Assembly (NCBI GenBank): GCA_965229995.1
Contig: OZ245933.1
Location: 1,451,703 to 1,515,702 of the forward strand
Length of the DNA: 64,000 nucleotides
Direction: 5' to 3'
From: Thermodesulfobacteriota bacterium
GTDB lineage: Bacteria > Desulfobacterota_D > UBA1144 > Nemesobacterales > Nemesobacteraceae
Shown here in pieces: positions 1,760 to 25,410 of this stretch. Every line of letters begins with the position of its first letter. Within the stretch, counting starts at the first letter, position 1. The notes beneath the pieces are model-generated. The model was not told where the DNA came from. It ran no database searches and was given only the letters and a program-made list of their open reading frames with translations. A program made the position numbers and the translations under genes.

Positions 1760-1833
1760 TGGCTGGGGCGGGAGGACTCGAACCCCCACTACCGGGACCA
1801 AAACCCGGTGTCCTGCCGTTAGACGACGCCCCA
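1760..1833 (-). tRNA. tRNA-Gln (anticodon TTG)
   Basis: Reverse complement TGGGGCGTCGTCTAACGGCAGGACACCGGGTTTTGGTCCCGGTAGTGGGGGTTCGAGTCCTCCCGCCCCAGCCA. Anticodon stem CCGGG/CCCGG around TT-TTG-GT, T-loop GTTCGAG, encoded CCA. Confidence 0.97.
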
Positions 1834-2082
1834 GTCGGGAAGAAGTTTTATGTTACCACATTCGCACGACTGTTAAAGCAAAAAACAAAACCCCAGACGC
1901 CGTACCGGTACAGCAGATCAACTCCATCCGGCGAAGGGGAACTGTTTACTTCAGCGGAGCTAAAGGAGGACAATCAGAGAGAAGCACAAATCGGCTAAAA
2001 AGAACTCGGGCCCGACAGTGGTGGCAAAATGCGGTGAGTGTTTGAGCCGGATCCGCCGATTCAGCTTAGAAGTTCGCTCATC

Positions 2083-3402
2083 CTAGTTGCCATCTGAAGG
2101 GTCGTCACAAAAGACACCTGCATATTCTAGCGTGGTGCAATCGTGAATTCCACGTTCCGCATGATCACAATCAAGCAGCTTATCTTCGGTTCCGTCGCAC
2201 TCTACCTCATCAAGCAGATAATATATTGGCGGAGAAGTGGTCCCATTTATCTGGGTTATCGGAGTGCCTCCTGCGAAGCCTAGCTGGCGGCATACAACTT
2301 GCGCTTCTTCCGTGCCCCACCCCAGGTTTTCATCATCTGCCCCATCATCACATATCCCCTTCCACTTCTTGCTCGGCTCATCAAATATCTCAACTATGCC
2401 CGTGAATTCATCCGAGTCCACTGTGACCGTGCCACCACCAAGATCATAACTAAGCATAATGGGCCTTAATCGAAGGGAACCGTCGGGCTTGTCAGTATAA
2501 ACAGGCCCCTCTTCAAAGCTGAAAACCTTCTCCTCGTTCTCTTCATCGTCCGTGAAAGTCAGCTTCACTTTGATCCAGTTTTCCTCATCGTCATCCTGAA
2601 GAACATAGGTGGAGGATGTCGCGCCGGAGATGTCGGTTTCATTCAAGTAAAGATCAACCCTGAGCCACTGATAGCTAAAAGAAGTCTCCTCAGTCGGCTT
2701 GCCGTCCTCATCAGTAATACCGGTGTGATCCGCGGTAAGCGTCTGCCTCAACTGAGTTTCGCCCGTGATCGCGAGTCGGCCTACGGCATCGTTGTTCGTG
2801 GTAGCAGCCGAGCAGGTAACACCAAAAGCCTCTTCGTTTTCGCAATCATGTTCTCCACGCCCTGAGTGTCTGCACTTACCCTCTCCGAGAATTTTTGCTT
2901 CCGAGCCTGCACATTCAAGATTGTCTAGCAGGTAATCCGAATTGTCCGGCAACGTCATCTGAGTTATCGGAGTGCCTCCCGCGAATCCCAATTGGCGGCA
3001 TGCAACCTCGGCCTCTTGCCTGCCGGTCACTCGAACGTTTCCTTCTTTCTCCGTTCCTAGCTCTCCCAGATAATCATCGCATATCCCCTTCCATTCCCCG
3101 GTACCGTCGCCATCCTCATCATCGAATATCTCAAGTCTGCCCGAAGGTGCCGTAGCCGTACTGAGATCAACTACCATACCGGCAGCCGTGTCCACCAGCC
3201 TAAGATCGCCGTCGGAGCTGGTCTGCTGCGTTCTGAGCTCCGCGGGTCCACCCAGAAGCAAAAATCCGAGCAAGAGGCCAGCCGCCACGATAAAAACGCG
3301 CAAAACGTCCAAGGATTTGGCAACTCTTTTTCCAATCCGCGCTACATAATTACCATTGTTCACAAGGTGGTTTCTAAGTTTTTCCAAGCGCGCTATTCCC
3401 AT
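2083..3402 (-). CDS. Secreted or membrane-anchored protein with two scavenger receptor cysteine-rich (SRCR) domains flanking an Ig-like beta-sandwich
   Basis: Two copies of LRL...G(R/I)(L/V)EIF...WKGICDD...EA.V.CRQLGF...LLD..EC.G.E.K...C.H..RG.HDC...E..GV.C, each with 6 Cys. N-terminal hydrophobic segment. Central FSYQW...GATSSTYVL domain. Confidence 0.88.
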   Translation of the reverse strand: MGIARLEKLRNHLVNNGNYVARIGKRVAKSLDVLRVFIVAAGLLLGFLLLGGPAELRTQQTSSDGDLRLVDTAAGMVVDLSTATAPSGRLEIFDDEDGDGTGEWKGICDDYLGELGTEKEGNVRVTGRQEAEVACRQLGFAGGTPITQMTLPDNSDYLLDNLECAGSEAKILGEGKCRHSGRGEHDCENEEAFGVTCSAATTNNDAVGRLAITGETQLRQTLTADHTGITDEDGKPTEETSFSYQWLRVDLYLNETDISGATSSTYVLQDDDEENWIKVKLTFTDDEENEEKVFSFEEGPVYTDKPDGSLRLRPIMLSYDLGGGTVTVDSDEFTGIVEIFDEPSKKWKGICDDGADDENLGWGTEEAQVVCRQLGFAGGTPITQINGTTSPPIYYLLDEVECDGTEDKLLDCDHAERGIHDCTTLEYAGVFCDDPSDGN

Positions 3403-3526
3403 CTTAAAACATCCTTTTTTATATGCAACGACATTTCTATACTACTGATTTTGGGATTATCTGTCATCCCTTTTTATTCGTTAAGCGGAAATGGGAACCG
3501 CAGCCAGACAGCAGGTCTCAAACCGT

Positions 3527-4393
3527 TCAGTCCGCAAGAAGATGCCAGCCGCTTATTCCCTGGGCCAGAAAAACTTCAAATTCAGCGGAGGTTTCCAAGT
3601 ACTCGTAGATTTCCTCCGCTTCCTGCCGTTCCCGGAAAACGGAAAAAACGGATGACCCGCTTCCGGAGACAAGCACGGAACGCGCCCCGAGCGACCGGAA
3701 TATCTCCCTGAAGGAGAGTATCTCGGGGAAAATCCCGAAGACCGCTTCGGAAAGACCGTTTTCAAGCGGAAAGTCTCCGCCGCGGAACCGCTCCGCAAGA
3801 GAAGCGGGATCGGCTCTTTCGGGCAACCGGTCGGGGTGTTCCCACCTGGCATAGATTTCCCGGGTCGACATGTTTTCGCCGGGGAAGAGAATAACGTAGT
3901 GAAAAAGCGGAAAATCCGAAAGCAAAGTCACCCTTTCCCCTATTCCCTCGACAAACGAAGCGGTGCATCTTATAAAGAACGGGATGTCGGCTCCTAGAGA
4001 TGCGGCCATCCGGAGCAGGTCCCGGTCGGTGAATTTCCCAAGAACTTTGTTAAGACCCACGAGAACCGCCGCGGCGTTTGAGCTTCCGCCGCCGAGTCCA
4101 GCGCCTAGGGGAATATTCTTTTTTACTCCTATCGAAACCTTCTCTCGCACCTCGGCAGCCTCAAGATAAAGGTTGCAGGCGGCCACGGCAAGATTGTCCC
4201 TTCCAGAGGGCATCTCCCTTCCGGAAGGAGAAAGACTTACCCCCTCTCCCGGTTCGATCGAAAGGCTTATTTCGTCAAAAAGGCTTACGGGCTGAACGAG
4301 AGACTGGAGCTCGTGGTACCCGTCGGGGCGCTTTCGGAGAATCCTGAGAAACAGGTTTACCTTCGCCGGGGAGAGAAGCTTTACAGAACTCAC
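3527..4393 (-). CDS. ispE: 4-diphosphocytidyl-2-C-methyl-D-erythritol kinase
   Basis: PAKVNLFL, DGYHEL, IPLGAGLGGGSSNAA, LGADIPFF, SGSGS motifs. Confidence 0.96.
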   Translation of the reverse strand: MSSVKLLSPAKVNLFLRILRKRPDGYHELQSLVQPVSLFDEISLSIEPGEGVSLSPSGREMPSGRDNLAVAACNLYLEAAEVREKVSIGVKKNIPLGAGLGGGSSNAAAVLVGLNKVLGKFTDRDLLRMAASLGADIPFFIRCTASFVEGIGERVTLLSDFPLFHYVILFPGENMSTREIYARWEHPDRLPERADPASLAERFRGGDFPLENGLSEAVFGIFPEILSFREIFRSLGARSVLVSGSGSSVFSVFRERQEAEEIYEYLETSAEFEVFLAQGISGWHLLAD

Positions 4394-5130
4394 CTTCGCG
4401 CCACGTCCGGCTCGAAATTCATCGTAAGCCTCACGCTTCTAAGCGGAAGCACTAGTCTTTTGAGCTTGGCTGTTTTTTCGTCAAAGCTCAGCAGAAGCCT
4501 GAACATGATGTATTTTCCCTCCGGGGTTTTTTCCCGCAGCCTGTATTTGTAGACGAAAACACTGCCGCCTTCATCTTTTAGCCTTGCGTACGGACGGCCG
4601 AGAATCTCAATCACTTCGGAGAGGCTTGGGATTTCCTTGTCTTCAAGAGACTTTATAGCCGCGGTGCTGGTTTTCTTAAGCTTTTTCACTTCGGCGCCGC
4701 CCACAGAACCCATTACCTTGCCGAGAACCTCCTTGTTTATATACTTTGTGAGGCGCTCGGGGAAGACGACCTCGCAGAGTTTTCCGCGACAAAGCTTCAT
4801 CCCCATGGCCAGATCGAAATTTCCGCTTTCGGTTTTTCTGCCCGGGTATTTTTTCACCAGATCATAGACCCAAAGTTCCGTGTCCTGTGAAACGCGGGTT
4901 TTCACCGGCGGGGAGTAGACCATAAGCCACGCAATGTCTTCTGCAAGCAGCGCCGGGTTTTTGAAAGAGAGGCGTAGACCGTCGTGGTCGCTCACGCTGA
5001 AATTTTCGCTGAAATTCCCAAGCTGACCCTTTACCTCAAGGAACCTGAAAAGCCGGCATCCCCCCGCCCCCAGACATAAAATGAGCAAAAACGATATGAG
5101 AATTTTTCTTCGCGAAGGCAGTTTTCCCAT
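4390..5130 (-). CDS. Hypothetical lipoprotein
   Basis: Likely start ATG 5130 gives MGKLPSRRKILISFLLILCLGAGGC, a signal peptide with a lipobox-like Cys. Stop overlaps the ispE start. Confidence 0.7.
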   Translation of the reverse strand: MGKLPSRRKILISFLLILCLGAGGCRLFRFLEVKGQLGNFSENFSVSDHDGLRLSFKNPALLAEDIAWLMVYSPPVKTRVSQDTELWVYDLVKKYPGRKTESGNFDLAMGMKLCRGKLCEVVFPERLTKYINKEVLGKVMGSVGGAEVKKLKKTSTAAIKSLEDKEIPSLSEVIEILGRPYARLKDEGGSVFVYKYRLREKTPEGKYIMFRLLLSFDEKTAKLKRLVLPLRSVRLTMNFEPDVARR

Positions 5131-5204
5131 CGGCAATTCGGCATTTCCCCCCAGATGTATTATTATACCGTACAGATAACCGGGATTATCTCTGACAACT
5201 TCAA

Positions 5205-5603
5205 ATGTTCGCAAGACTTTTAATTCTGTTCACCGTGGTTCCGCTCGTTGAGCTGGCGCTGCTCATAAAGCTCGGAAACGTAATAGGGCTCTGGCCGACC
5301 ATATTCATAGTCATAGCGACGGGAGTGCTGGGAGCGGCGCTCGCCAGGAGCCAGGGCACGCGTACCGTCGGCGCTATAAGAGCGGAACTCGCCCAGGGCA
5401 GGGCGCCTACGGAAAGCCTTCTAAACGGCCTTCTCATACTCGTGGGAGGGGTGGTGCTTCTGACCCCGGGACTGCTTACGGATCTTCTGGGCTTCTCCCT
5501 TCTTATTCCCTTAACCAGAAACTGGTTCAAAAAAGAACTTCAAAACAGGCTCAGAAAATACGCGGAGAAAAACTCCTCCTCCGCGACCATAATAATTCGT
5601 TGA
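5205..5603 (+). CDS. fxsA: FxsA family membrane protein
   Basis: PLVELALLI and LLLTPGLLTDLLG signature. Confidence 0.9.
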   Translation: MFARLLILFTVVPLVELALLIKLGNVIGLWPTIFIVIATGVLGAALARSQGTRTVGAIRAELAQGRAPTESLLNGLLILVGGVVLLTPGLLTDLLGFSLLIPLTRNWFKKELQNRLRKYAEKNSSSATIIIR

Positions 5604-5622
5604 AGGGAAAAACAGCCGCCGG

Positions 5623-6198
5623 TTACGGCTGAAACGGTTCGTGGCTGATTTTATGTATTATCGGCATGGAGAAGCTCACCGATTCCATGAGCTTCTGTCC
5701 GTACTCAATCACCCACTGCTCGGGAGCCAGGGCGTAGAAGTCCCCAAGAGTCATCCACTCCCCTCCCCTCACTATCTCCCCGTAGTCGGCGCTTACCAGA
5801 AAAGCTGTCATGTCTCCGCCGTCCATGGCATTCAGCACGGAACACTCAACATAGGAATGGACATCCCTCAAGACGGGACAGCCGTTTTTTCCCTGAACAT
5901 GGTCTATGCTCATAAACTTCCGCTTTTCCCTGCCCGAATAAAAACCGAAGTTTCGCACAAGGGCTATCTGATCTTTTTTCAGAAGGTGAACCACTAGATT
6001 CCTGCTTTTCATTATAAATCCGTGAGTGTGGTTCCCCTTCCATATCCCGATAAGGAGTCTCGGGATGGTATGGACTATGGAGGAGGTAACAAGCGTTACG
6101 GCCACCTGGCCGTTTATATCATCTTCCCGCCTGCTGGTTATGACCACGACCGGGGAATTATGCCAGAAAACCCCCGAAACCGAAGATGCGTCGTTCAC
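5623..6198 (-). CDS. Flavin reductase family protein
   Basis: Split-barrel pattern: PVVVIT, HTHGFI, FG..SGR..KF, GCPVL, VEC.V, GGD. Confidence 0.8.
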   Translation of the reverse strand: MNDASSVSGVFWHNSPVVVITSRREDDINGQVAVTLVTSSIVHTIPRLLIGIWKGNHTHGFIMKSRNLVVHLLKKDQIALVRNFGFYSGREKRKFMSIDHVQGKNGCPVLRDVHSYVECSVLNAMDGGDMTAFLVSADYGEIVRGGEWMTLGDFYALAPEQWVIEYGQKLMESVSFSMPIIHKISHEPFQP

Positions 6199-6337
6199 TA
6201 GAAAACTCCTTTTTTATACCGAGCAAAAATGCTGCGGGAGAATTGAAAAAACATCCCCCTTGTGCTATAGTAACCCGATCTTTTAAGTTTACCCGCAACA
6301 ACGCGTCGGCGCCTTTTAAACAGACTGAAACCCTATC

Positions 6338-7111
6338 ATGAAAAAAATAATCCCGGCGATCGCTTTTCTCTTCTTGGTCGTTGGTGTTCTGCACATCTCT
6401 GGGTGCTCAAAGAAGACTCTCCCGCCTCCCCCACCTGCAGAACCTTCAACGGAAGTTGAGGACAGGATTCTGGCAGTCTCAGAAAAACTTGAAGAAGCCC
6501 GCGCGGAAAACGCCGAAGACACATGGGAGTATCAGGAGGCGGAAAAGCTTTTCGAACTGGCTAAAGATCTGATCAGCAAAGGAGAGCTTGAGGAAGCCGG
6601 AGAAGTTCTTTCTCAGGCGGAACTCAGGGCCACCCAAGCGGTGGGAGCCGTCAGGGAAGATACCTACATGGAGGGTTTTGACGAGGCGGCCCAGGAAATA
6701 CGAAAATCCCTGCTCCGTGACTCCTTTTCCAAGGAAAATCTCGTTAACCTTCCCACTTCGGACGTGTTTTTCGAATTCGACAGAGCGGAGATATCAAAAG
6801 AGGCAATGGAGATAATCGACCGCAATATAAGCGTCTTTGAAAAAAATAAGGACAAGGTCAAATTCATTCTTGTCTTCGGTTTCTGCGACACCCGTGGGAC
6901 CGAGGAATACAACCTGTCCCTCGGAAAAAAAAGAGCGGATGAAATCAAGAAATACATGATCGGGCGGGGAGTGTCTCCTGACATGCTGCACTCCATCAGC
7001 AAGGGAGAGACGGAAATATGGCAGGAGGGGACGTCCGAAGAGGCCTACAGCCGCAACAGGCGTGGGCACTTCATGGCTCTCTCAAACAATACTTCTTCAG
7101 ACAACCAATGA
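6338..7111 (+). CDS. pal: OmpA/Pal-family peptidoglycan-associated lipoprotein with helical N-terminal extension
   Basis: Lipobox ISGC, VFFEFD, GFCDTRGTEEYNLSLGKKRA, SKGE, NRR. Lies upstream of a cpoB-like gene. Confidence 0.8.
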   Translation: MKKIIPAIAFLFLVVGVLHISGCSKKTLPPPPPAEPSTEVEDRILAVSEKLEEARAENAEDTWEYQEAEKLFELAKDLISKGELEEAGEVLSQAELRATQAVGAVREDTYMEGFDEAAQEIRKSLLRDSFSKENLVNLPTSDVFFEFDRAEISKEAMEIIDRNISVFEKNKDKVKFILVFGFCDTRGTEEYNLSLGKKRADEIKKYMIGRGVSPDMLHSISKGETEIWQEGTSEEAYSRNRRGHFMALSNNTSSDNQ

Positions 7112-7929
7112 GAAAAAAATATCTGGCCGTCGCCGCAATATCGTTTTGCTCCATGTTCATGTACGGGTGCGTAGCATCGGAAGGAGACATGGATTTTCTT
7201 TACTCAAGGCAACGGGAAATTGAGACGACCTTAAAAAAGACGCAGAAGGATATCGACTGGCTAAAGGCGGAAGTCAAGAAAGAAGAGAACATTCTGGATC
7301 TGAACGAAAAGACTTTCGAACTTGAAAACAAGCTCCTGGAACTGGAGCAGATAATAGGCGAAATGCACACGCGGAATGAAGAACGCTTCAAGACAATAGA
7401 GGGCAAATTGTCGATGAGCGGAAGTTCCGTATCCCAAGATGCAGTCCCCGAACCGGAAACACAGCCCGCAACGGATTCCCCGAAGACTCAGGAAAGTTCA
7501 ACCGCAGCCCCCGAAATGAAATCCCCTCCCGCGGAAGCGGAAAAGGATCCCAAGGAGAATTACGATCTGGGACGAAAGGAGTTTGCCGACGGTAATTACG
7601 AGGCCGCAAGAGCAATGCTGAGAAAATACCTGGCCGACGCTCCCAGGAGCGATGAGGCTTCAGATGCGATGTTCTTTATCGCGGATTCCTATTTCAAGGA
7701 AAAGCTTTACGAAGAAGCCATACTCGAATACCAGAACATAATCGAAACCTGGCCTGCCAGCCCCAAAATCCCTCTTTGCCAGCTAAACCAGGGACTCGCT
7801 CTTTTGGAGATAGGAAAACCGAACGAGGCAAGTCTTTTTTTCGAATCCCTGATTGAGGCATACCCGGAGTCGCCCGAGGCCGCCGAGGCGAAAAAACACC
7901 TAAAGAGCCTGTCAGCACCGGAAGAATAA
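7108..7929 (+). CDS. cpoB: Tol-Pal system protein CpoB/YbgF (coiled coil plus TPR)
   Basis: Likely start ATG 7108 overlapping the pal stop. Lipoprotein-like signal, coiled coil and C-terminal TPRs ending YPESPEA. Confidence 0.8.
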   Translation: MRKKYLAVAAISFCSMFMYGCVASEGDMDFLYSRQREIETTLKKTQKDIDWLKAEVKKEENILDLNEKTFELENKLLELEQIIGEMHTRNEERFKTIEGKLSMSGSSVSQDAVPEPETQPATDSPKTQESSTAAPEMKSPPAEAEKDPKENYDLGRKEFADGNYEAARAMLRKYLADAPRSDEASDAMFFIADSYFKEKLYEEAILEYQNIIETWPASPKIPLCQLNQGLALLEIGKPNEASLFFESLIEAYPESPEAAEAKKHLKSLSAPEE

Positions 7930-7964
7930 AAACTCCAATTGTGGTCGTCTCCTAACCGTTTCTG

Positions 7965-9248
7965 ATGAATACCGACAATTCAGAAAAGCTTTTTCGCAGG
8001 GCGAAAAACGTTCTCGTGGGCGGGGTAAACAGTCCCGTGAGGTCTTTTGCAGCCGTGGGAGGTTCTCCCCTTTTCATATCAAGGGCCGAAGGTTCTTACG
8101 TATATGACGCGGACGGCAACAGGTTCATTGACTACGTGGCCTCGTGGGGTCCCCTGATCTTAGGTCACTCACACCCCTCGGTCGTAAGCGCCGTTGAGAA
8201 AAGGCTTCCTCTTGGAACCAGTTTCGGCGCCCCGTGCGAACTGGAAACGGATCTTGCCACGCTTATAGCCAGAAGCTTTCCCTCGATTGAAAAGGTTCGC
8301 CTGACCAACTCCGGAACCGAGGCAACGATGAGCGCCATAAGGCTCGCAAGAGCGGTCACCGAGAGGGAATACATAGTCAAGTTCGAGGGATGCTACCATG
8401 GGCACTCGGATTTTCTGCTCGTAAAATCCGGTTCCGGAGCCACGACTTTCGGCAATCCGAGCAGCGCCGGGGTTCCGAAATCGTTTGTGAACAGAACGCT
8501 GCTTGCTCGGTATAACGACATAGGTTCCGTCAAAAGGCTTTTCACAAAGTACCCCCGGAAAATCGCCGGAGTGATAATCGAACCCGTGGCAGGAAACATG
8601 GGAGTGGTAACCCCGGGGAGAAACTTCCTCGAGCAATTGCGTTTGATATGCGAAAAATACGGAGCGGTTCTTATCTTTGATGAAGTCATAACGGGGTTTC
8701 GACTCACAAGAGGGGGCGCCCAGGCACTGTTCGGCGTAACCCCGGACATTACGTGTCTCGGGAAAATAATAGGAGGAGGTCTTCCGGTGGGAGCATACGG
8801 GGCTAGCGGGGAAATAATGCGGATGGTCTCCCCGGAAGGTCCCATGTACCAGGCGGGAACTCTCTCGGGAAACCCGCTTGCCATGGCGGCGGGACTTGCG
8901 ACCATAAAAGAGCTTAACGCAAGAACCTACAGACGCCTGGAGGGCTTAACCGACTCTCTGGTATCGGGAATAGAGGAGACAATAGCCGAGCTTGGCATTT
9001 CCGCCACCGTGAATTCGGTGGGTTCCATGTTCACCGTGTTTTTCACCGCAGAGAGAGTCACGGATTACACAGGGGCGCTTGGATGCGATACCGAGAAGTA
9101 CGCAAGATTCTTCAGAAATCTTCTTCGAAACGGGGTCATGTTTCCGCCGTCCCAGTTCGAGAGCGTATTTGTCTCAACCGCGCACACGAAAAAGCAGATA
9201 AACCAGACGCTTGAAGCCATACGCACATCGCTTGAGGAAATTTCCTGA
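7965..9248 (+). CDS. hemL: Glutamate-1-semialdehyde 2,1-aminomutase
   Basis: GGVNSPVR, NSGTEATMSAIRLAR, FEGCYHGH, DEVITGFR, LGKIIGGGLPVGAYG, YQAGTLSGNP. Confidence 0.97.
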   Translation: MNTDNSEKLFRRAKNVLVGGVNSPVRSFAAVGGSPLFISRAEGSYVYDADGNRFIDYVASWGPLILGHSHPSVVSAVEKRLPLGTSFGAPCELETDLATLIARSFPSIEKVRLTNSGTEATMSAIRLARAVTEREYIVKFEGCYHGHSDFLLVKSGSGATTFGNPSSAGVPKSFVNRTLLARYNDIGSVKRLFTKYPRKIAGVIIEPVAGNMGVVTPGRNFLEQLRLICEKYGAVLIFDEVITGFRLTRGGAQALFGVTPDITCLGKIIGGGLPVGAYGASGEIMRMVSPEGPMYQAGTLSGNPLAMAAGLATIKELNARTYRRLEGLTDSLVSGIEETIAELGISATVNSVGSMFTVFFTAERVTDYTGALGCDTEKYARFFRNLLRNGVMFPPSQFESVFVSTAHTKKQINQTLEAIRTSLEEIS

Positions 9249-9486
9249 GGAGAGAGAAATCAGAAGTCCTAACTGGCTTTTTTTCACCGTAGTCGGCATT
9301 GAATTCGGTTTTTCCGTCATAGCGGGGCTCTTGCTCGGCGACTATATCGACGGAAAACTTGACACCTCCTTCCCTTTCTTTACCCTGCTAGGTCTTGTGT
9401 GCGGAGTAATAGCGGGACTGACCCTGCTTTTGCGGACCCTGAAACTGAAGCAGAAAAAAGAAGAAAGCGACGATGAAAAATCTTAG
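9211..9486 (+). CDS. atpZ: AtpZ/ATP synthase protein I (ATPase gene 1) family
   Basis: Two TM helices with G...G..ID..L.T.P.F.LLG pattern, first gene of the Fo cluster. Start uncertain (TTG 9232 possible). Confidence 0.8.
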   Translation: MKPYAHRLRKFPEEREIRSPNWLFFTVVGIEFGFSVIAGLLLGDYIDGKLDTSFPFFTLLGLVCGVIAGLTLLLRTLKLKQKKEESDDEKS

Positions 9487-9814
9487 TTTCGGCGTTGAGA
9501 AACTGTCTTTGGCCGTAACGGCGCTTCTTTTCGCCGTGAATATTGCCATCGGGGAAAGGGAAGTAGCGGTTGCCATAGCGGTCGCAGGAGTGCTTTTTCT
9601 GCTGGATTACGTGGCCATAAGATTCGTCGTAAAAGCGCTTGCGGAAAACAGGTATTCACTCGCGTTTTCCATGTTCATACTGGTCATGAAAATGCTCGCG
9701 CTGCTTGCGATAATAGCGGTTTTACTCCTATTTGCAAAACTAAATATTTATGGTTTAATGATAGGCTTAACTTCCGTGGTGATAATAATAATAGGTAAAG
9801 GTTTGAAGGGCTAA
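9473..9814 (+). CDS. atpI: ATP synthase subunit I-like membrane protein
   Basis: Four hydrophobic helices, between atpZ and atpB. Confidence 0.7.
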   Translation: MKNLSFGVEKLSLAVTALLFAVNIAIGEREVAVAIAVAGVLFLLDYVAIRFVVKALAENRYSLAFSMFILVMKMLALLAIIAVLLLFAKLNIYGLMIGLTSVVIIIIGKGLKG

Positions 9815-9816
9815 AT

Positions 9817-10506
9817 ATGGAACATTTCAGCTGGTTTTCCTTGGCCGGTCTCATAGAATACGACCATATTCTGGGCGGAGTGCTCGTAATCTTGTTCATA
9901 CTGTTTACAGGCTTGAGGATAAAAAATCATTACTCGAAAGAAGAATCCGTAATCCCCGAAGAAAAGCCGTCGATGAATGTTTTCTACGAGCTCATTGGGC
10001 TTGAGTTTCTTTTTACCACAATTGAAAACGTATTCGGGTCCCGCGAGAAGGCCAAAAAATACTTCCCGCTTCTAGCCGGGTCGTTTTTCTTCATACTGTT
10101 TGCTAACCTGCTTGGAATGGTTCCCGGTTTTCTTCCGCCGACTGGAAATCTCAACACCACGGTCGCGTGTTCGCTACTCATATTCGTCATGTACAACTAC
10201 TACGGAGTAAGGGAGCACGGGTTCGGTTACCTGAAACATTTTTTGGGCCCGGTAATTTTCCTCGCGCCGCTTATGGTGATCATTGAGGTGATAAGCCATC
10301 TCGTAAGGCCCCTATCGCTCTCCCTCAGGCTTTTCATGAACATAACGGGCGACCACATGGTGCTTGCGGTATTTACCGACCTCACGCATATACTGATTCC
10401 CATGGCTTTTGTGGGACTCGGTATTTTTGTATCTTTTCTGCAGGCTTTTATATTCACTATACTTTCGACCATATATATCGCGCTTGCCGAAGCGCATGAA
10501 CACTGA
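9817..10506 (+). CDS. atpB: ATP synthase Fo subunit a
   Basis: NLLGMVPG, PPTGNLN, RPLSLSLRLFMN, LQAFIF. Confidence 0.97.
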   Translation: MEHFSWFSLAGLIEYDHILGGVLVILFILFTGLRIKNHYSKEESVIPEEKPSMNVFYELIGLEFLFTTIENVFGSREKAKKYFPLLAGSFFFILFANLLGMVPGFLPPTGNLNTTVACSLLIFVMYNYYGVREHGFGYLKHFLGPVIFLAPLMVIIEVISHLVRPLSLSLRLFMNITGDHMVLAVFTDLTHILIPMAFVGLGIFVSFLQAFIFTILSTIYIALAEAHEH

Positions 10507-11068: not shown

Positions 11069-11410
11069 ATGAAATCACAAGCACCGCAAACGCTTCCGCG
11101 GACAGCCCGCCAAGCTTTAGTCAAACTTGGCGCGGATATAGCCGTCGCGCGCAAAAAACGCCGCATCTCGACGGTTTCAATGGCGGAACGCGCCTTTATC
11201 AGCCGCGCTACTCTTTACAAGGTTGAAAAGGGTGACCCTACAGTCTCGATGGGAATATACACGACGGTTCTAGCTATCCTCGGTCTTGCCGAAGGGTTAG
11301 CTCAAGTCGCCGACCGCATCAATGACGCTTTGGGCCTTGATCTTGACGAGGACCGTCTGCCCAAGAAAATCATGTCCGGGAGACACAGAGGCAAGAGGAT
11401 CCGCCAATGA
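11069..11410 (+). CDS. XRE-family HTH protein, putative HipB-like antitoxin
   Basis: LG..I..ARK.R.IS...MAERA.ISR.TL.KVEKGDP HTH. Stop overlaps the hipA start (ATGA). Confidence 0.85.
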   Translation: MKSQAPQTLPRTARQALVKLGADIAVARKKRRISTVSMAERAFISRATLYKVEKGDPTVSMGIYTTVLAILGLAEGLAQVADRINDALGLDLDEDRLPKKIMSGRHRGKRIRQ

Positions 11411-12657
11411 GAGATGCAATTGAGATCCATGTTGACCAGCCGGACGGTACTCGAATGGTCGGGCGGTTCCGCTATGTAAGCAGCCGCCACAACCGAAGCT
11501 CTGTATTCGAATATGCGGACGAATGGCTCGGTGACCCCACTGCCTTTGCGATTGATCCGGAAAATCTGCCGCTACGGGACGGGCCGTTTTATACTTCTTC
11601 AGGTAAATCCGCGCTGCCGGGAGCGATCCGCGACGCGGCACCCGACCGATGGGGTCGGCAGCTTATCAAGCGCGCGTTTAGCAAAGCCGGGGAAAAGCGA
11701 CCCCTTTCGGAGATTGATTACCTGCTCGCAGTCGCGGACCACACGCGCATCGGCGCGCTGCGTTTCAGGCTTGAGGGCAAAGATTCATTTGATCATGACA
11801 CCGGTAATTTCCGTGTACCGCCCCTGATTCATTTGCCGGCGCTTATAAATGCGGCCGATGCTGTCCAGACGAATACCGAAACGGCGGAAGACCTTAAACT
11901 GCTCCTGAATGAAGGCTCGCCACTCGGCGGCGCACGACCGAAATCCGCTGTAGAGGATAAAAACGGCGCGCTGGCAATCGCCAAGTTTCCAAAGCCCGAT
12001 GACGACCGTAGCATACCGCATGGAGAAGTACTGGCGATGACGCTGGCGCGTAAGGCGGGGCTGACCGTGGCCGATGCCAAGCTGCAGGATGTAGCCGGTC
12101 GCCCAGTGGCGCTGATTCGGCGCTTTGACCGAACGGGCAGCCGACGTATCCCGTTTCTGTCAGCCATGAGCCTTCTCGGGCTAAATGACGGAGATGAAGC
12201 AACTTACACCGACATTGCAGAGATTATACGCATGTATTCGAGTTCGCCTATGGAAGACCTGCACGAACTCTGGCGAAGGATGGTCTTCAATGTGATGGTC
12301 GGCAATCTTGACGATCATCTGCGCAATCACGGATTTCTTTACGACCGCAACGACAGATGGCGATTATCGCCCGCCTATGACCTTAATCCCGTGCCGCTTG
12401 CGGAAAAAGCCCGGGAACTTACAACTTGGATCTCGGAACAGGGACCTGAAGCCGACCTTGATCTGGCACGCGAGGCAACACCGTTTTTTGCTCTGAAGAA
12501 AAAACAGGCTGAGGCAATGATTGATGAAATATCGGCTGTTCTGAAAAACTGGAGAAGTACAGCACGCCGCCTGGGTATGAGTTCCAAGGACATCGCCGTT
12601 TACGCCACAGCGATTCTAGGAGATCAAAACATCAATAAAAGATCATTCAGATCGTAA
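11407..12657 (+). CDS. hipA: HipA-family serine/threonine kinase toxin
   Basis: PDRWGR, GSPLGGARPK, IAKFP, RRFDR, GNLDDHLRNHGF, LSPAYD motifs. Confidence 0.92.
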   Translation: MRDAIEIHVDQPDGTRMVGRFRYVSSRHNRSSVFEYADEWLGDPTAFAIDPENLPLRDGPFYTSSGKSALPGAIRDAAPDRWGRQLIKRAFSKAGEKRPLSEIDYLLAVADHTRIGALRFRLEGKDSFDHDTGNFRVPPLIHLPALINAADAVQTNTETAEDLKLLLNEGSPLGGARPKSAVEDKNGALAIAKFPKPDDDRSIPHGEVLAMTLARKAGLTVADAKLQDVAGRPVALIRRFDRTGSRRIPFLSAMSLLGLNDGDEATYTDIAEIIRMYSSSPMEDLHELWRRMVFNVMVGNLDDHLRNHGFLYDRNDRWRLSPAYDLNPVPLAEKARELTTWISEQGPEADLDLAREATPFFALKKKQAEAMIDEISAVLKNWRSTARRLGMSSKDIAVYATAILGDQNINKRSFRS

Positions 12658-21462: not shown

Positions 21463-24400
21463 ATGCTTGTTAAATCCGGCAAAAATATATCACTTATTCT
21501 GAATCTAGTTTTTATGCTTGTCATGGCATGGCATTTTTCTTTTACAGTCAAAGCTGCGACATTGCCGGAGCGGCTATCCTCCGATTTTATCAGCGAGTTC
21601 ATAGAGAACGAGTCCATAGAGAGTGTCGAGGAATTCATCGAGGCGCTGCCGCCGCTGCATAAAAGATATTTTCTGCTTGTATTCAATTCCGAGGCTCCAA
21701 ACAAGGATTTTGTTTCCGAGGATTACCCGAGGATTATTTCCTGGGGAGCCAATGCACGCTTCATTCTTTCCTGGGCAACCAATCCCGATATACCCAAATA
21801 CCAGTCCGTTGAATTTCTGGAGCAGGGTTCCGACAGATGGACTTCGGGAGTAATCGATTTTTCTTCCTCCCCGCCCGAGATATCGAACCCGACTGATTGC
21901 GCGACCTGTCATGGCAGTTTTGCTAAGCCTCTGTTTGGACGACAGCCTTTTTGGCAGGGCACCGAAGAGCCGGATGGCTTCTCTGACTTTACGGAAGACT
22001 CGCCTCACGTGCAACCTCTAAGAAACGCAATGGCGTCAACCGATTCAAGATTAGCACCTTTGGATTTCGAAAATTCACGTCTATTAATTGGTTATAGGCG
22101 TGAAATTAAAATTGCGCCGGGAGTTTTTAGTTATTCGGCAACTAGAGGCTTTTATAACATGCTCGTCCGCCGGCAAGCGGAAATTCTGTTCAACGACTTC
22201 AGAAGGCGTGAGCAGAATAACGAAATCGACTTTGTTCAAGATTTCTTATGTAACGAGATAAGGAATCCTATTGGTAGAACAGCTCTTGAACTTGAATTTG
22301 ATAAAGAGCGTCTAAGAAGAAATTTCTTTCCCTCCCAGCGGGCTGACGATCTCAGCGGTGTTCAGGGAAGCCCACAGAGCAACGGCGGCATGCCCAACTA
22401 TGGTAACGGTGATCTGAGAGAGACATTAGAGTTTCTCTATTTTTATCATCTTTGGCAGACCGACGACCGAATCAAAGAGCTCTACAGAAGTTCTTTGAAT
22501 TCGCACCTTTTCTGGCGAAAAAGACCGTATCAACAGTATGAAAAAATTTTTAATTTTAATAATTACGGATTCGGAACTGCTACTTCGGAAGATGAGCTGA
22601 TTCATTCATATAACATATTTTTTGGGTACAGAGGGCAAAATTCCACTGATGCCAGATTGAAGAGCCTAATATACCCACCTGATAGGATGGGGCGCATTTT
22701 TGAAGGTCACGTTCTCAAGGCGAGATCATATGTATGCGAAGCGTTAAATGAAGAGAATGGGCAGAAAGAGTTCTGGGTTGCGGACAGTTTCGCATCGGAA
22801 GCGGCAGAGCAGATCGTTTTCGACATCGTTCTGGGACAGAACAACAATCCACCGGCAGTGGTGTATTACAGCACCGAAGACGAAACGGCAACAAACGGCG
22901 AGGATTACACGGGCATGGCGGGTTCTATTTCCTTTATGGCGGGGGACAAGGAGAAGAGGCTGGTTATTCCCTTGATTCATGACAATTTGAATGAAGATAC
23001 CGAGACCTTCCTGTTAAAACTGACAGACGCGCAGGGAACCACCCTTGACACCGCAAGGGGCAGTATTAAACAGAGCGATGCCAATCAATTGGCCGTTTCA
23101 TTCAGAAAAACCAGCTACAGTGTCGCAGAAGGGGAAAGCGCTGAAGTAATAGTGGATATAAAAGGCAGGAATGCCGGGCGTAGCGCTACTATACCGCTTA
23201 AAAAATACCATTTAGAGTCCACCAGCTCAGATTATTCTGAAATTCCAGACAGTTTTGCTTTTTCAACTGCTGAGACCGAGAGCAGTTTTACTTTCACGGC
23301 AACGGATGATTCTGAAGATGATAATGGGGAGAGCGTGGAGTTAAGGTTCGGCAGTTTGCCGATAAATGTTGTAGTAGGCAGTCCCGCAACAGCAAAAACA
23401 ATGTTGAACATAGTGGGTTCAGATTCTTCGGGGATTTCCGAGAACAGCGCGCCAAGTGCCGACGCCGGAGACGGCGGAGATTTTGCGGTCGGCAGCTCGG
23501 TAACGCTTGACGGATCGGGGTCCACGGATTCCGACGGGAGCATAACCCTCTATTCATGGACGCAGACCGAAGGCGATACAGTAACGCTCACCAACGCGGG
23601 CTTGGGAAAGGTGAGCTTTACGGCTCCTCCTACGGATTCAACCCAGACTCTTGGGTTCCTTCTGACCGTTGAGGACGATGACGGCGCCTCCGATACAGAT
23701 ACGGTTTCGATTGCCGTCTACCGCGAGAACAGCGCACCAAGTGCCGATGCCGGAGACGGCGGAGATTTTGCGGTCGGCAGCTCGGTAACGCTTGACGGAT
23801 CGGGGTCCACGGATTCCGACGGGAGCATAACCCTCTATTCATGGACGCAGACCGAAGGCGATACAGTAACGCTCACCAACGCGGGCTTGGGAAAGGTGAG
23901 CTTTACGGCTCCTCCTACGGATTCAACCCAGACTCTTGGGTTCCTTCTGACCGTTGAGGACGATGACGGCGCCTCCGATACAGATACGGTTTCGATTGCC
24001 GTCTACCGCGAGAACAGTCCGCCCAATGCCGATGCCGGAGACGGCGGAGATTTTGCGGTCGGCAGCTCGGTAACGCTTGACGGATCGGGGTCCACGGATT
24101 CCGACGGGAGCATAACCCTCTATTCATGGACGCAGACCGAAGGCGATACAGTAACGCTCACCAACGCGGGCTTGGGAAAGGTGAGCTTTACGGCTCCTCC
24201 TACGGATTCAACCCAGACTCTTGGGTTCCTTCTGACCGTTGAGGACGATGACGGCGCCTCCGATACAGATACGGTTTCGATTGCCGTCTACCGCGAGAAC
24301 AGTCCGCCCAATGCCGATGCCGGAGACGGCGGAGATTTTGCGGTCGGCAGCTCGGTAACGCTTGACGGATCGGGGTCCACGGATTCCGACGGGAGCATAA

Positions 24401-25410
24401 CCCTCTATTCATGGACGCAGACCGAAGGCGATACAGTAACGCTCACCAACGCGGGCTTGGGAAAGGTGAGCTTTACGGCTCCTCCTACGGATTCAACCCA
24501 GACTCTTGGGTTCCTTCTGACCGTTGAGGACGATGACGGCGCCTACGATACAGATACGGTTTCGATTGCCGTCTACCGCGAGAACAGTCCGCCCAATGCC
24601 GATGCCGGAGACGGCGGAGATTTTGCGGTCGGCAGCTCGGTAACGCTTGACGGATCGGGGTCCACGGATTCCGACGGGAGCATAACCCTCTATTCATGGA
24701 CGCAGACCGGAGGCGATTCAGTAACGCTTACCAACGCGGGATTGGGAAAGGTGGTGAGCTTTGCGGCTCCTCCTACGGATTCAACCCAGACTCTTGGGTT
24801 CCTTCTGACCGTTGAGGACGATGACGGCGCCTACGATACAGATACGGTTTCGATTGCCGTCTACCGCGAGAACAGTCCGCCCAATGCCGATGCCGGAGAC
24901 GGCGGAGATTTTGCGGTCGGCAGCTCGGTAACGCTTGACGGATCGGGGTCCACGGATTCCGACGGGAGCATAACCCTCTATTCATGGACGCAGACCGGAG
25001 GCGATTCAGTAACGCTTACCAACGCGGGATTGGGAAAGGTGGTGAGCTTTGCGGCTCCTCCTACGGATTCAACCCAGACTCTTGGGTTCCTTCTGACCGT
25101 TGAGGATAATGACGGCGCCTACGATACAGATACGGTTTCGATTGCCGTCTACCCTGCCCCAAAATCTGGAGGGATTATCGATCCACCTGTTGTACCGCCA
25201 AGGGCTTCCAACCCGTCCGTACCGCCAGTGGTTTCCAGTCCGCCTGTACCGCCAGTGGTTTCCAACCCGCCCTCGCAAGCTTCAAGTGGGGGATGCACGA
25301 TTGCATTAGAGAACACAGAGAATCCCCAAAAAAGTTCTATATTAAACTTGCTTTTGCTACTGCTGACGTTGTTTCCGAAAGCTTTACTAAAACATCCTCG
25401 CAGGAACTAA
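21463..25410 (+). CDS. Large surface protein: signal peptide, CxxCH domain, Calx-beta-like domains, 6 PKD-like repeats, Pro-rich linker, GGC-TM-basic C-terminal sorting signal
   Basis: CATCH motif, V.Y.T.D.TA..GEDY...G.I.F Calx-beta pattern, P.ADAG...VTLDGSGS.D.DG.I..YSWTQ repeats, tail SSGGCTIA...ILNLLLLLLTLFPKALLKHPRRN. Confidence 0.88.
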   Translation: MLVKSGKNISLILNLVFMLVMAWHFSFTVKAATLPERLSSDFISEFIENESIESVEEFIEALPPLHKRYFLLVFNSEAPNKDFVSEDYPRIISWGANARFILSWATNPDIPKYQSVEFLEQGSDRWTSGVIDFSSSPPEISNPTDCATCHGSFAKPLFGRQPFWQGTEEPDGFSDFTEDSPHVQPLRNAMASTDSRLAPLDFENSRLLIGYRREIKIAPGVFSYSATRGFYNMLVRRQAEILFNDFRRREQNNEIDFVQDFLCNEIRNPIGRTALELEFDKERLRRNFFPSQRADDLSGVQGSPQSNGGMPNYGNGDLRETLEFLYFYHLWQTDDRIKELYRSSLNSHLFWRKRPYQQYEKIFNFNNYGFGTATSEDELIHSYNIFFGYRGQNSTDARLKSLIYPPDRMGRIFEGHVLKARSYVCEALNEENGQKEFWVADSFASEAAEQIVFDIVLGQNNNPPAVVYYSTEDETATNGEDYTGMAGSISFMAGDKEKRLVIPLIHDNLNEDTETFLLKLTDAQGTTLDTARGSIKQSDANQLAVSFRKTSYSVAEGESAEVIVDIKGRNAGRSATIPLKKYHLESTSSDYSEIPDSFAFSTAETESSFTFTATDDSEDDNGESVELRFGSLPINVVVGSPATAKTMLNIVGSDSSGISENSAPSADAGDGGDFAVGSSVTLDGSGSTDSDGSITLYSWTQTEGDTVTLTNAGLGKVSFTAPPTDSTQTLGFLLTVEDDDGASDTDTVSIAVYRENSAPSADAGDGGDFAVGSSVTLDGSGSTDSDGSITLYSWTQTEGDTVTLTNAGLGKVSFTAPPTDSTQTLGFLLTVEDDDGASDTDTVSIAVYRENSPPNADAGDGGDFAVGSSVTLDGSGSTDSDGSITLYSWTQTEGDTVTLTNAGLGKVSFTAPPTDSTQTLGFLLTVEDDDGASDTDTVSIAVYRENSPPNADAGDGGDFAVGSSVTLDGSGSTDSDGSITLYSWTQTEGDTVTLTNAGLGKVSFTAPPTDSTQTLGFLLTVEDDDGAYDTDTVSIAVYRENSPPNADAGDGGDFAVGSSVTLDGSGSTDSDGSITLYSWTQTGGDSVTLTNAGLGKVVSFAAPPTDSTQTLGFLLTVEDDDGAYDTDTVSIAVYRENSPPNADAGDGGDFAVGSSVTLDGSGSTDSDGSITLYSWTQTGGDSVTLTNAGLGKVVSFAAPPTDSTQTLGFLLTVEDNDGAYDTDTVSIAVYPAPKSGGIIDPPVVPPRASNPSVPPVVSSPPVPPVVSNPPSQASSGGCTIALENTENPQKSSILNLLLLLLTLFPKALLKHPRRN
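23440..25152 (+). repeat. Six near-identical intragenic tandem repeats (285-288 bp, 95-96 aa)
   Basis: Units start at 23440, 23725, 24010, 24295, 24580 and 24868. Confidence 0.97.
25192..25272 (+). repeat. Three 27-bp repeats encoding a Pro-rich linker
   Basis: GTACCGCCA at 25192, 25219 and 25246, encoding VPPRASNPS / VPPVVSSPP / VPPVVSNPP. Confidence 0.85.

Follow-up and report, generated by a model that had tools for sequence, protein, structure and literature searches.

SRCR (scavenger receptor cysteine-rich) domains are recognition modules of animals, and the question raised here is how two of them came to sit in a bacterial protein and what they might do there. The protein is encoded within a 64,000-nucleotide stretch of Thermodesulfobacteriota DNA (contig OZ245933.1 of assembly GCA_965229995.1), referred to below as the window. 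One open frame on the minus strand (2083..3402; 439 codons plus stop) specifies a 439-amino-acid (aa) protein in which a basic N-terminal tail and one hydrophobic helix precede two SRCR domains parted by an Ig-like sandwich, and full-length homologs were found at 38–96% identity. The analysis below identifies it as a real, old and selected SRCR-Ig-SRCR envelope protein of a sponge-associated subclade of Dadabacteria.

Two SRCR domains in one bacterial protein

The first-pass annotation of this DNA had proposed two complete six-cysteine SRCR domains and a profile search as the means of checking them. The Pfam SRCR profile (PF00530) matched the protein in two stretches at E = 1.8e-29 (102.4 bits against a cutoff of 26.1), which bears the proposal out. 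A whole-genome SRCR search placed domains at window positions 2107-2415 (65.1 bits) and 2809-3024 (41.3 bits), and PF00530 matched all 48 members of the protein family. The protein has 12 cysteines, six in each SRCR domain and none elsewhere; in the family alignment, those of domain 2 are kept in 48/48 sequences and those of domain 1 in 44–48 of 48. All six cysteines of domain 2 align with cysteines of the CD163 repeats, a phenylalanine occupies the place of the group B cysteine C4, and there is no cysteine in residues 303–350, that is, none ahead of the first beta-strand of the domain. The CD163 alignment leaves no cysteine at the group B C1 and C4 places, and each domain has the pattern of SRCR group A, with cysteines at C2, C3, C5, C6, C7 and C8, the class that had been proposed from the cysteine count. 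The disulfides predicted for this class would be C2-C7, C3-C8 and C5-C6.

The two domains are 48% identical at the protein level. Their likeness at the DNA level, which had been noticed between about 2250-2310 and about 2960-3020, was recovered as a 68-nt repeat at 81% identity (2249-2316 versus 2957-3024) together with two shorter in-register pairs. A duplication inside the bacterial lineage is the simplest explanation for the two SRCR heads. Each domain has an insert beside an Asp-Asp pair, of about 17 residues in domain 1 and, in domain 2, of seven residues with acidic character that are present in the nearest subclades only. These insert loops have the lowest model confidence inside the SRCR domains.

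An AlphaFold model of the whole protein, built on 48 homologs, had a pLDDT of 82.4 and a pTM of 0.76 and was poor only at residues 1–37 and 46–58. Foldseek comparison with the PDB gave 54 matches at E ≤ 0.001, and among the matches listed all were SRCR proteins. The best single-domain match to the model was MARCO (PDB: 2oy3; TMt 0.88, root-mean-square deviation 1.4 Å, 33% identity), so that the structural match whose absence would have told against the first-pass annotation was obtained; other matches were the MARCO dimer form (PDB: 2oya; 0.82, 1.2 Å), SCARA5 (PDB: 7c00; 0.80, 1.4 Å) and M2BP (0.80). Searched against solved structures by sequence, the protein matched 22 distinct SRCR chains at E ≤ 0.001, with CD163 at the top (E = 3e-38). 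In the predicted structure, the SRCR fold, a beta-sheet cradling one alpha-helix, is present.

A putative cation- and ligand-binding site is conserved in both domains

Ligand binding by animal SRCR domains has been traced to cation sites in the eighth SRCR domain of DMBT1 (Reichhardt et al., PMC7043408). As described there, a pair of Asp following the second Cys makes up site 2 with a Glu close to the final Cys, and site 3 takes in the second Asp of that pair, an Asn and two Asp that precede the fifth Cys; alanine at the two Asp abolishes binding to all ligands tested, and the same binding surface is used by MARCO, CD6 and CD163 (PMC7043408). The equivalent residues were placed here by alignment with CD163 domain 3 and the residues given in PMC7043408, with the DMBT1 numbering mapped by motif. 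The predicted site residues are D109, D110, D160, N161, D186 and E191 in domain 1 and D352, D353, D398, E399, D421 and E426 in domain 2. Conservation among the 48 family members is high in domain 1 (D109 in 47, D110 in 46, D160 in 40, N161 as D/N/E in 46, D186 as N/D in 40 and E191 in 44) and in domain 2 (D352 in 44, D353 in 44, D398 in 47, E399 as E/D in 44, D421 as D/N in 47 and E426 in 48). The predicted acidic cluster of sites 2 and 3 is present in both domains and is kept or conservatively replaced in 40–48 of the 48 sequences. With the site residues kept and inserts lying beside the Asp-Asp pair, the chemistry of binding seems to have been retained and the surface around it remodeled.

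The Ig-like spacer and the N-terminal segment

The region between the heads had been described as an Ig-like spacer, a description that holds for its predicted fold and only faintly for its family match. Modeled alone (22 sequences), the spacer forms a seven-strand beta-sandwich (pLDDT 89.5). Among solved structures, its top match is to plant SCAB1, in the Ig domain of that protein (E = 3.8e-4, TMq 0.62); Ig-like decoration proteins from phage N4-type capsids come next, then PKD domains. The Pfam IG_AIR9 match is weak (E = 0.012 here; E ≤ 0.01 in 4/48 family members), and a profile of the Ig-like domain found nothing below E = 0.27 among PDB sequences. A Pfam scan of the protein returned SRCR families and weak Ig/YecR matches only, with no collagen or coiled-coil family.

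Residues 1–35 have a pI of 11.5 and include eight K/R, and residues 33–51, which correspond to the hydrophobic segment noted in the first-pass annotation, are the sole strongly hydrophobic stretch of the protein and its Kyte-Doolittle maximum. The remainder, taken as the ectodomain, is very acidic (pI 4.05; 83 D/E versus 27 K/R). L49 and G51 at the helix are kept in at least 90% of the 48 homologs, and the residues directly past the helix are also conserved. When a profile of the N-terminal 62 residues was searched against the open reading frames (ORFs) of the genome, it found only itself, the next best match having E = 0.04, so the leader is unique in the genome. An N-in, C-out orientation is in keeping with the basic tail, the helix and the acidic remainder. 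Such a type II topology is the orientation of class A scavenger receptors.

The cell that makes the protein has genes for OmpA, Tol-Pal and secretin, a DsbA-like thioredoxin-fold gene and a type II secretion system (T2SS) cluster (PDZ protein, GspD, GspE, GspF, pseudopilins and GspK). The N-terminal helix is the sole targeting signal in a bacterium with an outer membrane, so the protein may never leave the inner membrane. If the anchor is uncleaved, the SRCR heads would remain in the periplasm, and a cleaved signal could allow export through the outer membrane; both outcomes are possible.

A probable single gain in one subclade, and purifying selection

SRCR domains were detected in 30 of 120 genomes of the phylum, all of them in the genus of the window (29 of its 35 species plus the genome that holds the window). 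The SRCR profile search found no match in 84 genomes of other genera of the phylum or in 14 control genomes, in keeping with the statement of the first-pass annotation that the domain is rare in bacteria. Copy number varies among genomes, with up to 15 SRCR matches per genome, and single-SRCR Dadabacteria forms of 300–370 aa also occur. Named homologs, like related records, carry the titles of Candidatus Dadabacteria or Thermodesulfobacteriota metagenome-assembled genomes (MAGs).

The locus was compared in 16 of the 29 other carriers, those with the match on a long contig, and in five of the six SRCR-less species of the genus. All 16 carriers have the SRCR gene, or two to three tandem copies of it, on the same strand between ispE and uvrD; a scan for tRNA-Gln located it just before uvrD in three of the 16 (L004, L009 and L011). 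In all five non-carriers, tRNA-Gln comes after ispE and the SRCR gene is lacking; uvrD is directly next in four, and an extra helicase-like gene intervenes in the fifth (G065). A tree of five flanking proteins (1466 columns) split the 17 carriers from the five non-carriers with an SH-aLRT of 100. Given this presence and absence across one branch and the absence of the gene elsewhere in the phylum, the simplest history is one gain of the SRCR gene in the ancestor of the subclade, with the non-carriers deeper-branching.

The gene is old; it is neither an artefact nor a recent transfer. The first-pass annotation had allowed for a chimeric assembly, and the only thing that speaks for animal host DNA mis-assembled or mis-binned into a bacterial genome is the animal-like nature of the domain itself. 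Synteny across related genomes has already refuted that explanation: the same junctions recur in 16/16 related genomes inspected, most of them single-contig, and the genome here is itself a single contig of 1,719,171 bases (1.72 Mb), 97% complete. The ORF is free of introns and has a bacterial-style leader and a Shine-Dalgarno-like AAGGA 9–13 nt 5' of the ATG. Composition also resembles that of the neighbors, with a GC content of 0.517 versus 0.510 ± 0.021 for the 42 other genes of the window, GC at third codon positions of 0.526 versus 0.565 ± 0.037, and a rank of 19/43 in codon-usage distance from the pool.

The ratio of nonsynonymous to synonymous substitution (dN/dS) was 0.13–0.21 in 16/16 ortholog comparisons, and the SRCR gene is therefore under purifying selection, which further argues against an artefact; neighboring genes gave 0.07–0.32, bar one value of 0.73 at dS 0.03. 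In comparisons with an 11-genome subclade (L009–L019), the SRCR gene was more divergent than its neighbors, with dN 0.27–0.30 versus 0.04–0.23, dS 1.3–2.3, about twice the 0.4–1.2 of the neighbors, and protein identity of 52–58% versus 68–90%. These values point either to faster evolution of the SRCR gene or to mutual replacement by old paralogs; the synonymous divergence in particular hints at replacement of this kind, or at recombination, in place of simple orthology. Replacement by paralogs fits the presence, in three close relatives, of a second SRCR copy downstream of uvrD, whose domain 2 groups with the genes of the other subclade.

Relation to other SRCR domains

An exhaustive HMMER search with domain 2 returned 5800 cluster representatives at E ≤ 0.001. 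The best 150 of the 5800 are nearly all long multi-SRCR proteins at 32–47% identity, and ten of them, the top-scoring match and nine of the most identical, were looked up by name; all ten come from vertebrates or echinoderms and are named as DMBT1-like, neurotrypsin-like or SRCR proteins. At the level of sequence, the identification of the domains as genuine and animal-like is supported. Two further searches were made. A word-index search of domain 2 against proteins of 75–240 aa gave 21 candidates and three matches and was uninformative on the donor. The best cluster in the ESM Atlas, in which the commonest phylum was Porifera, reached 0.85, below the required level of 0.9, and was kept as a lead only.

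A pattern scan of one genome per prokaryote species, limited to what the pattern can catch, yielded 40 loci: 33 in Dadabacteria or Thermodesulfobacteriota MAGs, two in a MAG titled Spirochaetia and five in Myxococcota. The Myxococcota domains (MAGs titled Archangium, Myxococcaceae and Myxococcales) are 32–40% identical. Because SRCR also occurs in Myxococcota, the domain by itself is not a hallmark of symbionts. Archangium and Myxococcaceae are predatory soil bacteria. The two loci in the MAG titled uncultured Spirochaetia (L040 and L041) are family members about 50% identical, and the label or the binning of that MAG may be wrong. In a MAG titled uncultured Myxococcales, an ORF on a 4962-base contig (L065) encodes five tandem SRCR domains within residues 190–834; four of them group with two multi-SRCR rows, apart from other bacterial domains, and the locus could be a separate acquisition or a mis-binned contig.

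In a domain tree, a check of the kind proposed at the outset, the Dadabacteria domains group together, and no metazoan donor is singled out. The domain tree (116 rows, 99 columns) is poorly resolved, with only four starred branches, and with so few columns and supported branches it cannot name a donor or the direction of transfer. It places the 24 domains of 12 SRCR-Ig-SRCR proteins together with three single-SRCR Dadabacteria proteins (SH-aLRT 83), and all 27 of these non-autotransporter Dadabacteria domains sampled lie outside any animal clade. The first domains all fall into a single clade (SH-aLRT 90). Once the autotransporter domain described below is added, 28 Dadabacteria rows lie on one side of a branch with support of 52. 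A weak split (77) sets the Dadabacteria rows, with four Archangium-type rows, one Myxococcales-MAG row and one multi-SRCR row, against 78 of the 79 multi-SRCR rows. Among the 116 rows, no animal or sponge donor stands out.

The same domain is found in other architectures, in the single-SRCR Dadabacteria proteins, in the Myxococcota proteins and in an autotransporter of the same genome. The autotransporter is encoded 66 kb beyond the window (G000:C1, about 1578158-1582819, minus strand; equal to L070:1158-5819) and has 1553 aa, with predicted domains in the order SRCR, F5/8 type C, Big_9, three cadherin, three fn3 and autotransporter beta-domain. By this domain prediction, the SRCR domain sits at the tip of a displayed stalk. 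Large SRCR-bearing ORFs of 861–1861 aa are present in at least 10 other genomes of the genus. The SRCR domain is already annotated automatically in public records. A literature search for SRCR domains in bacterial or symbiont proteins turned up no paper on them, its matches concerning host SRCRs; the supplementary tables of PMC8163846 and PMC8115339 lay outside that search.

Habitat and presence in RNA libraries

A 2.7-kb stretch of the locus is present in 20 run rows from 11 studies, most of which have coded organism labels. Four RNA libraries from four studies were compared with the locus, and contigs cover parts of the gene in all four, two of which are labeled sponge metagenome. One of the two (X19) gave three contigs at 95–99% likeness, and the other (X20) gave one contig at ≥99% and two at 90–95%. 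The contigs of three runs end at 3413-3419, 11–17 nt upstream of the ATG, in the AT-rich gap of 124 nt between ispE and the SRCR gene; the ends faintly suggest that a transcript begins downstream of the promoter-like site listed in Table 1.

A link between the organism and sponges is supported by these records. Robbins et al. report 22 Dadabacteria MAGs from sponges (PMC8163846). Pelagic Dadabacteria genomes, as characterized by Graham and Tully, are about 1.22 Mb with reduced GC (PMC8115339), and a pelagic source was dropped in view of the 1.72 Mb and about 50% GC of the genome here. Rhodopsin (PF01036) was tried as a pelagic marker and gave no match in this genome, the control genomes being silent too; nothing follows from it.

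Features of the locus and other genes of the window

The features of the SRCR gene and its borders are collected in Table 1. The neighbors are ordinary (uvrD-like helicase, tRNA-Gln, ispE, fxsA, flavin reductase, ompA-like, ybgF-like and hemL), and the remainder of the window holds mostly housekeeping genes.

Table 1. Features of the SRCR gene and its surroundings, in window coordinates
Feature	Position	Strand	Remarks
Basic N-terminal tail, residues 1–32	3307..3402	-	pI 11.5; pLDDT <50; conserved among homologs; presumed cytoplasmic
Hydrophobic helix, residues 33–51	3250..3306	-	Kyte-Doolittle maximum; model helix 38–48
SRCR domain 1, residues ~63–200	2803..3216	-	6 Cys; ~17-residue insert after Cys-Asp-Asp motif
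Ig-like beta-sandwich spacer, residues ~201–302	2497..2802	-	No Cys; model and fold match; weak IG_AIR9
SRCR domain 2, residues ~303–439	2086..2496	-	6 Cys; 7-residue acidic insert after Cys-Asp-Asp
Promoter-like site	3439..3467	-	9/12 consensus positions, 17-nt spacer; consensus match only; in ispE gap
tRNA-Gln(ttg)	1760..1833	-	Downstream border of insertion site
ispE	3527..4393	-	Upstream border of insertion site
249-nt gap	1834..2082	-	Place of Cache gene in 8/16 relatives; cleanly missing in window

In eight of the 16 relatives, a Cache-domain gene (sCache_2/dCache_2; 388–422 aa) lies directly 3' of the SRCR gene (for example, L004:7120-8286 and L009:10408-11676). When the corresponding 249-nt gap of the window is set against the nearest relative, L004, it aligns with the sequence on either side of the Cache gene there, and elsewhere in the genome here there are only Cache paralogs at 38% identity. 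The SRCR gene is kept without a Cache neighbor in 9/17 genomes. As the Cache gene is missing in the window, any two-gene mechanism does not apply to this genome. One relative (L009, genome G049) has three tandem SRCR-Ig-SRCR genes at this site, preceded by a 985-aa Laminin_G_3/fn3 protein, the whole lying at 3166-6123 and 6334-10334.

Elsewhere in the window, positions 21463-25407 (plus strand) encode a protein of 1315 aa in which six PKD-like domains occur with Calx-beta and a bacterial Ig domain, another candidate surface or adhesion protein. A HipA-like kinase (HipA_C and Couple_hipA; 11407-12654, plus strand) is preceded by a 113-aa ORF with no Pfam match (11069-11407, plus strand), and the two may be a toxin-antitoxin pair.

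Discussion

We favor, at a probability of roughly 0.55, the interpretation that the SRCR-Ig-SRCR protein is a resident, functional envelope protein that binds polyanions in a cation-dependent manner and serves as an adhesion or recognition module in the sponge. The short basic tail and hydrophobic helix would hold the protein in, or pass it through, the inner membrane, and the acidic ectodomain (SRCR, Ig-like, SRCR) would lie outside the cytoplasm, where six disulfides can form. The acidic clusters of both heads would hold Ca2+ or Mg2+ and bridge to anionic ligands, as in MARCO, DMBT1/SALSA, CD6 and CD163. Candidate ligands would be polyanions, for example sulfated glycans or matrix of the host or envelope polymers of microbes. 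Because both heads keep their acidic clusters, cation-dependent binding of polyanions is the most likely activity, and the protein probably binds surface molecules of the host or of microbes.

Among known systems, the protein resembles the class A receptors MARCO, SCARA5 and SR-AI/SCARA1 in the six-cysteine pattern, the fold and the acidic cation/ligand cluster, and also in its predicted orientation, an N-terminal tail and membrane helix with the SRCR outside. Unlike them, it is bacterial, has two SRCR heads parted by an Ig-like domain and has inserts beside Cys-Asp-Asp in both heads. Where class A receptors have a collagenous or coiled-coil trimerizing stalk, the Pfam scan and the model give an Ig-like sandwich between the heads, and for want of such a stalk, the protein is not a member of that class despite the likeness of head and orientation. 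Group B proteins (DMBT1/SALSA/gp340, CD163 and CD5L) give the best sequence scores, headed by the CD163 match and with DMBT1-like repeats at 42–47%, and their cation sites 2 and 3 are needed for ligand binding by mutagenesis (PMC7043408). They differ in having eight cysteines per domain, in contrast to the protein here, which lacks C1 and C4, and in being animal secreted or type I proteins of many repeats with CUB, ZP or SID linkers. The eukaryote-like proteins of sponge symbionts (ankyrin, LRR, TPR, HEAT, WD40, fn3 and cadherin) are alike in that an animal-type domain occurs in a sponge-associated bacterium, is present in sponge metatranscriptome assemblies and has undergone lineage-specific expansion. 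SRCR, being common in eukaryotes and rare in bacteria, is a eukaryote-like domain in the same sense, although it is not among the five repeat classes in the Fig. 3 legend of PMC8163846.

Several observations weigh against a sponge-facing binder. Site residues are lost in some family members, D352/D353 being A/N in 4/48 and D160 differing in 8/48; the Cache neighbor of 8/16 relatives is missing in the window; and an N-terminal anchor in a bacterium with two membranes would keep the protein periplasmic, short of signal cleavage and export. RNA-library contigs are no proof of transcription, as DNA carry-over is possible and they give no expression levels, and the carrier and non-carrier genomes bear no habitat labels, so that a link between the gene and symbiosis is conjectural. 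Topology, disulfides, cation binding, ligand and any host effect are all predictions. One rival reading is a protein that faces inward, tethered to the inner membrane and binding the anionic polymers of its own envelope or periplasmic solutes, for example polyanionic substrates for degradation, with no host contact. A sole targeting signal in the N-terminal helix would suit this, the cell having genes for OmpA, Tol-Pal and secretin, as would the conserved motif next to the helix and the Cache-fold neighbor of 8/16 relatives, a sensor type typical of periplasmic ligand sensing. We nevertheless consider an inward role rather unlikely, given that the same domain occupies a displayed position at the autotransporter tip in the same genome, that a housekeeping envelope function would hardly be expected to stay within a single subclade of one genus, and that dN against the 11-genome subclade exceeds that of the neighbors.

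The first-pass annotation had leaned toward host mimicry, in which a released or displayed ectodomain would compete with sponge SRCR receptors or mask the bacterium, so that the symbiont is not treated as food or foreign. The idea is attractive in that sponges have expanded this very domain type for recognition (PMC4772301, PMC10855680), and single eukaryote-like proteins are described as letting bacteria escape sponge phagocytosis (PMC13747020). The family is confined to one subclade, reaches up to 15 matches per genome and occurs alongside a T2SS, and contigs from runs labeled sponge metagenome cover the gene. It is harder to reconcile with the relationships of the domains: no sponge or animal SRCR is specially close, the best being 32–47% identical and the named ones all vertebrate or echinoderm, and the 27 non-autotransporter Dadabacteria domains sampled cluster with one another, outside any animal clade (SH-aLRT 83). 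Release, or display at the surface, is also only presumed, and on balance mimicry appears doubtful, though it deserves a serious hearing. Less credible still, and in our estimate quite improbable, is a tool for contact with other microbes or phages in the sponge that binds the surfaces of neighbors or acts as phage receptor or decoy. Animal SRCR domains do bind bacterial surface polymers (PMC7043408), SRCR occurs in the MAGs titled Archangium and Myxococcaceae, and copy number varies between genomes; yet no defense or mobile genes lie beside the SRCR gene, and the low dN/dS carries no overall arms-race signal.

A wider interpretation can be offered tentatively, as a conjunction of steps that we would not expect to hold in full. 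The ancestor of the subclade would have captured an animal-type SRCR module once, and the module would have spread into at least three envelope architectures (SRCR-Ig-SRCR, SRCR-tipped autotransporter and single-SRCR, in some cases with a Cache partner alongside). As a set, they would be the symbiont's counterpart to the sponge SRCR system, with Ca2+-bridged docking on host sulfated glycans or an aggregation-factor-like matrix helping to decide whether a bacterium is kept or eaten.

The protein is a bacterial form of a well-known domain family and is of interest for sponge symbiosis, where its target may be the host, other microbes or its own envelope. Sponges are thought to sort symbionts from food partly by means of expanded SRCR receptor families, and what is known of the bacterial side of this contact is mostly ankyrin proteins and other repeat proteins. 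In the present case, a bacterial family has been made out of the recognition domain of the host itself, with putative ligand-binding residues intact, a datable single gain and a lineage-specific expansion. A disulfide-rich "animal" immune module can be kept by bacteria over long times, and this one, being expressible, offers a concrete candidate through which a symbiont might attach to, or be recognized by, an early-branching animal.

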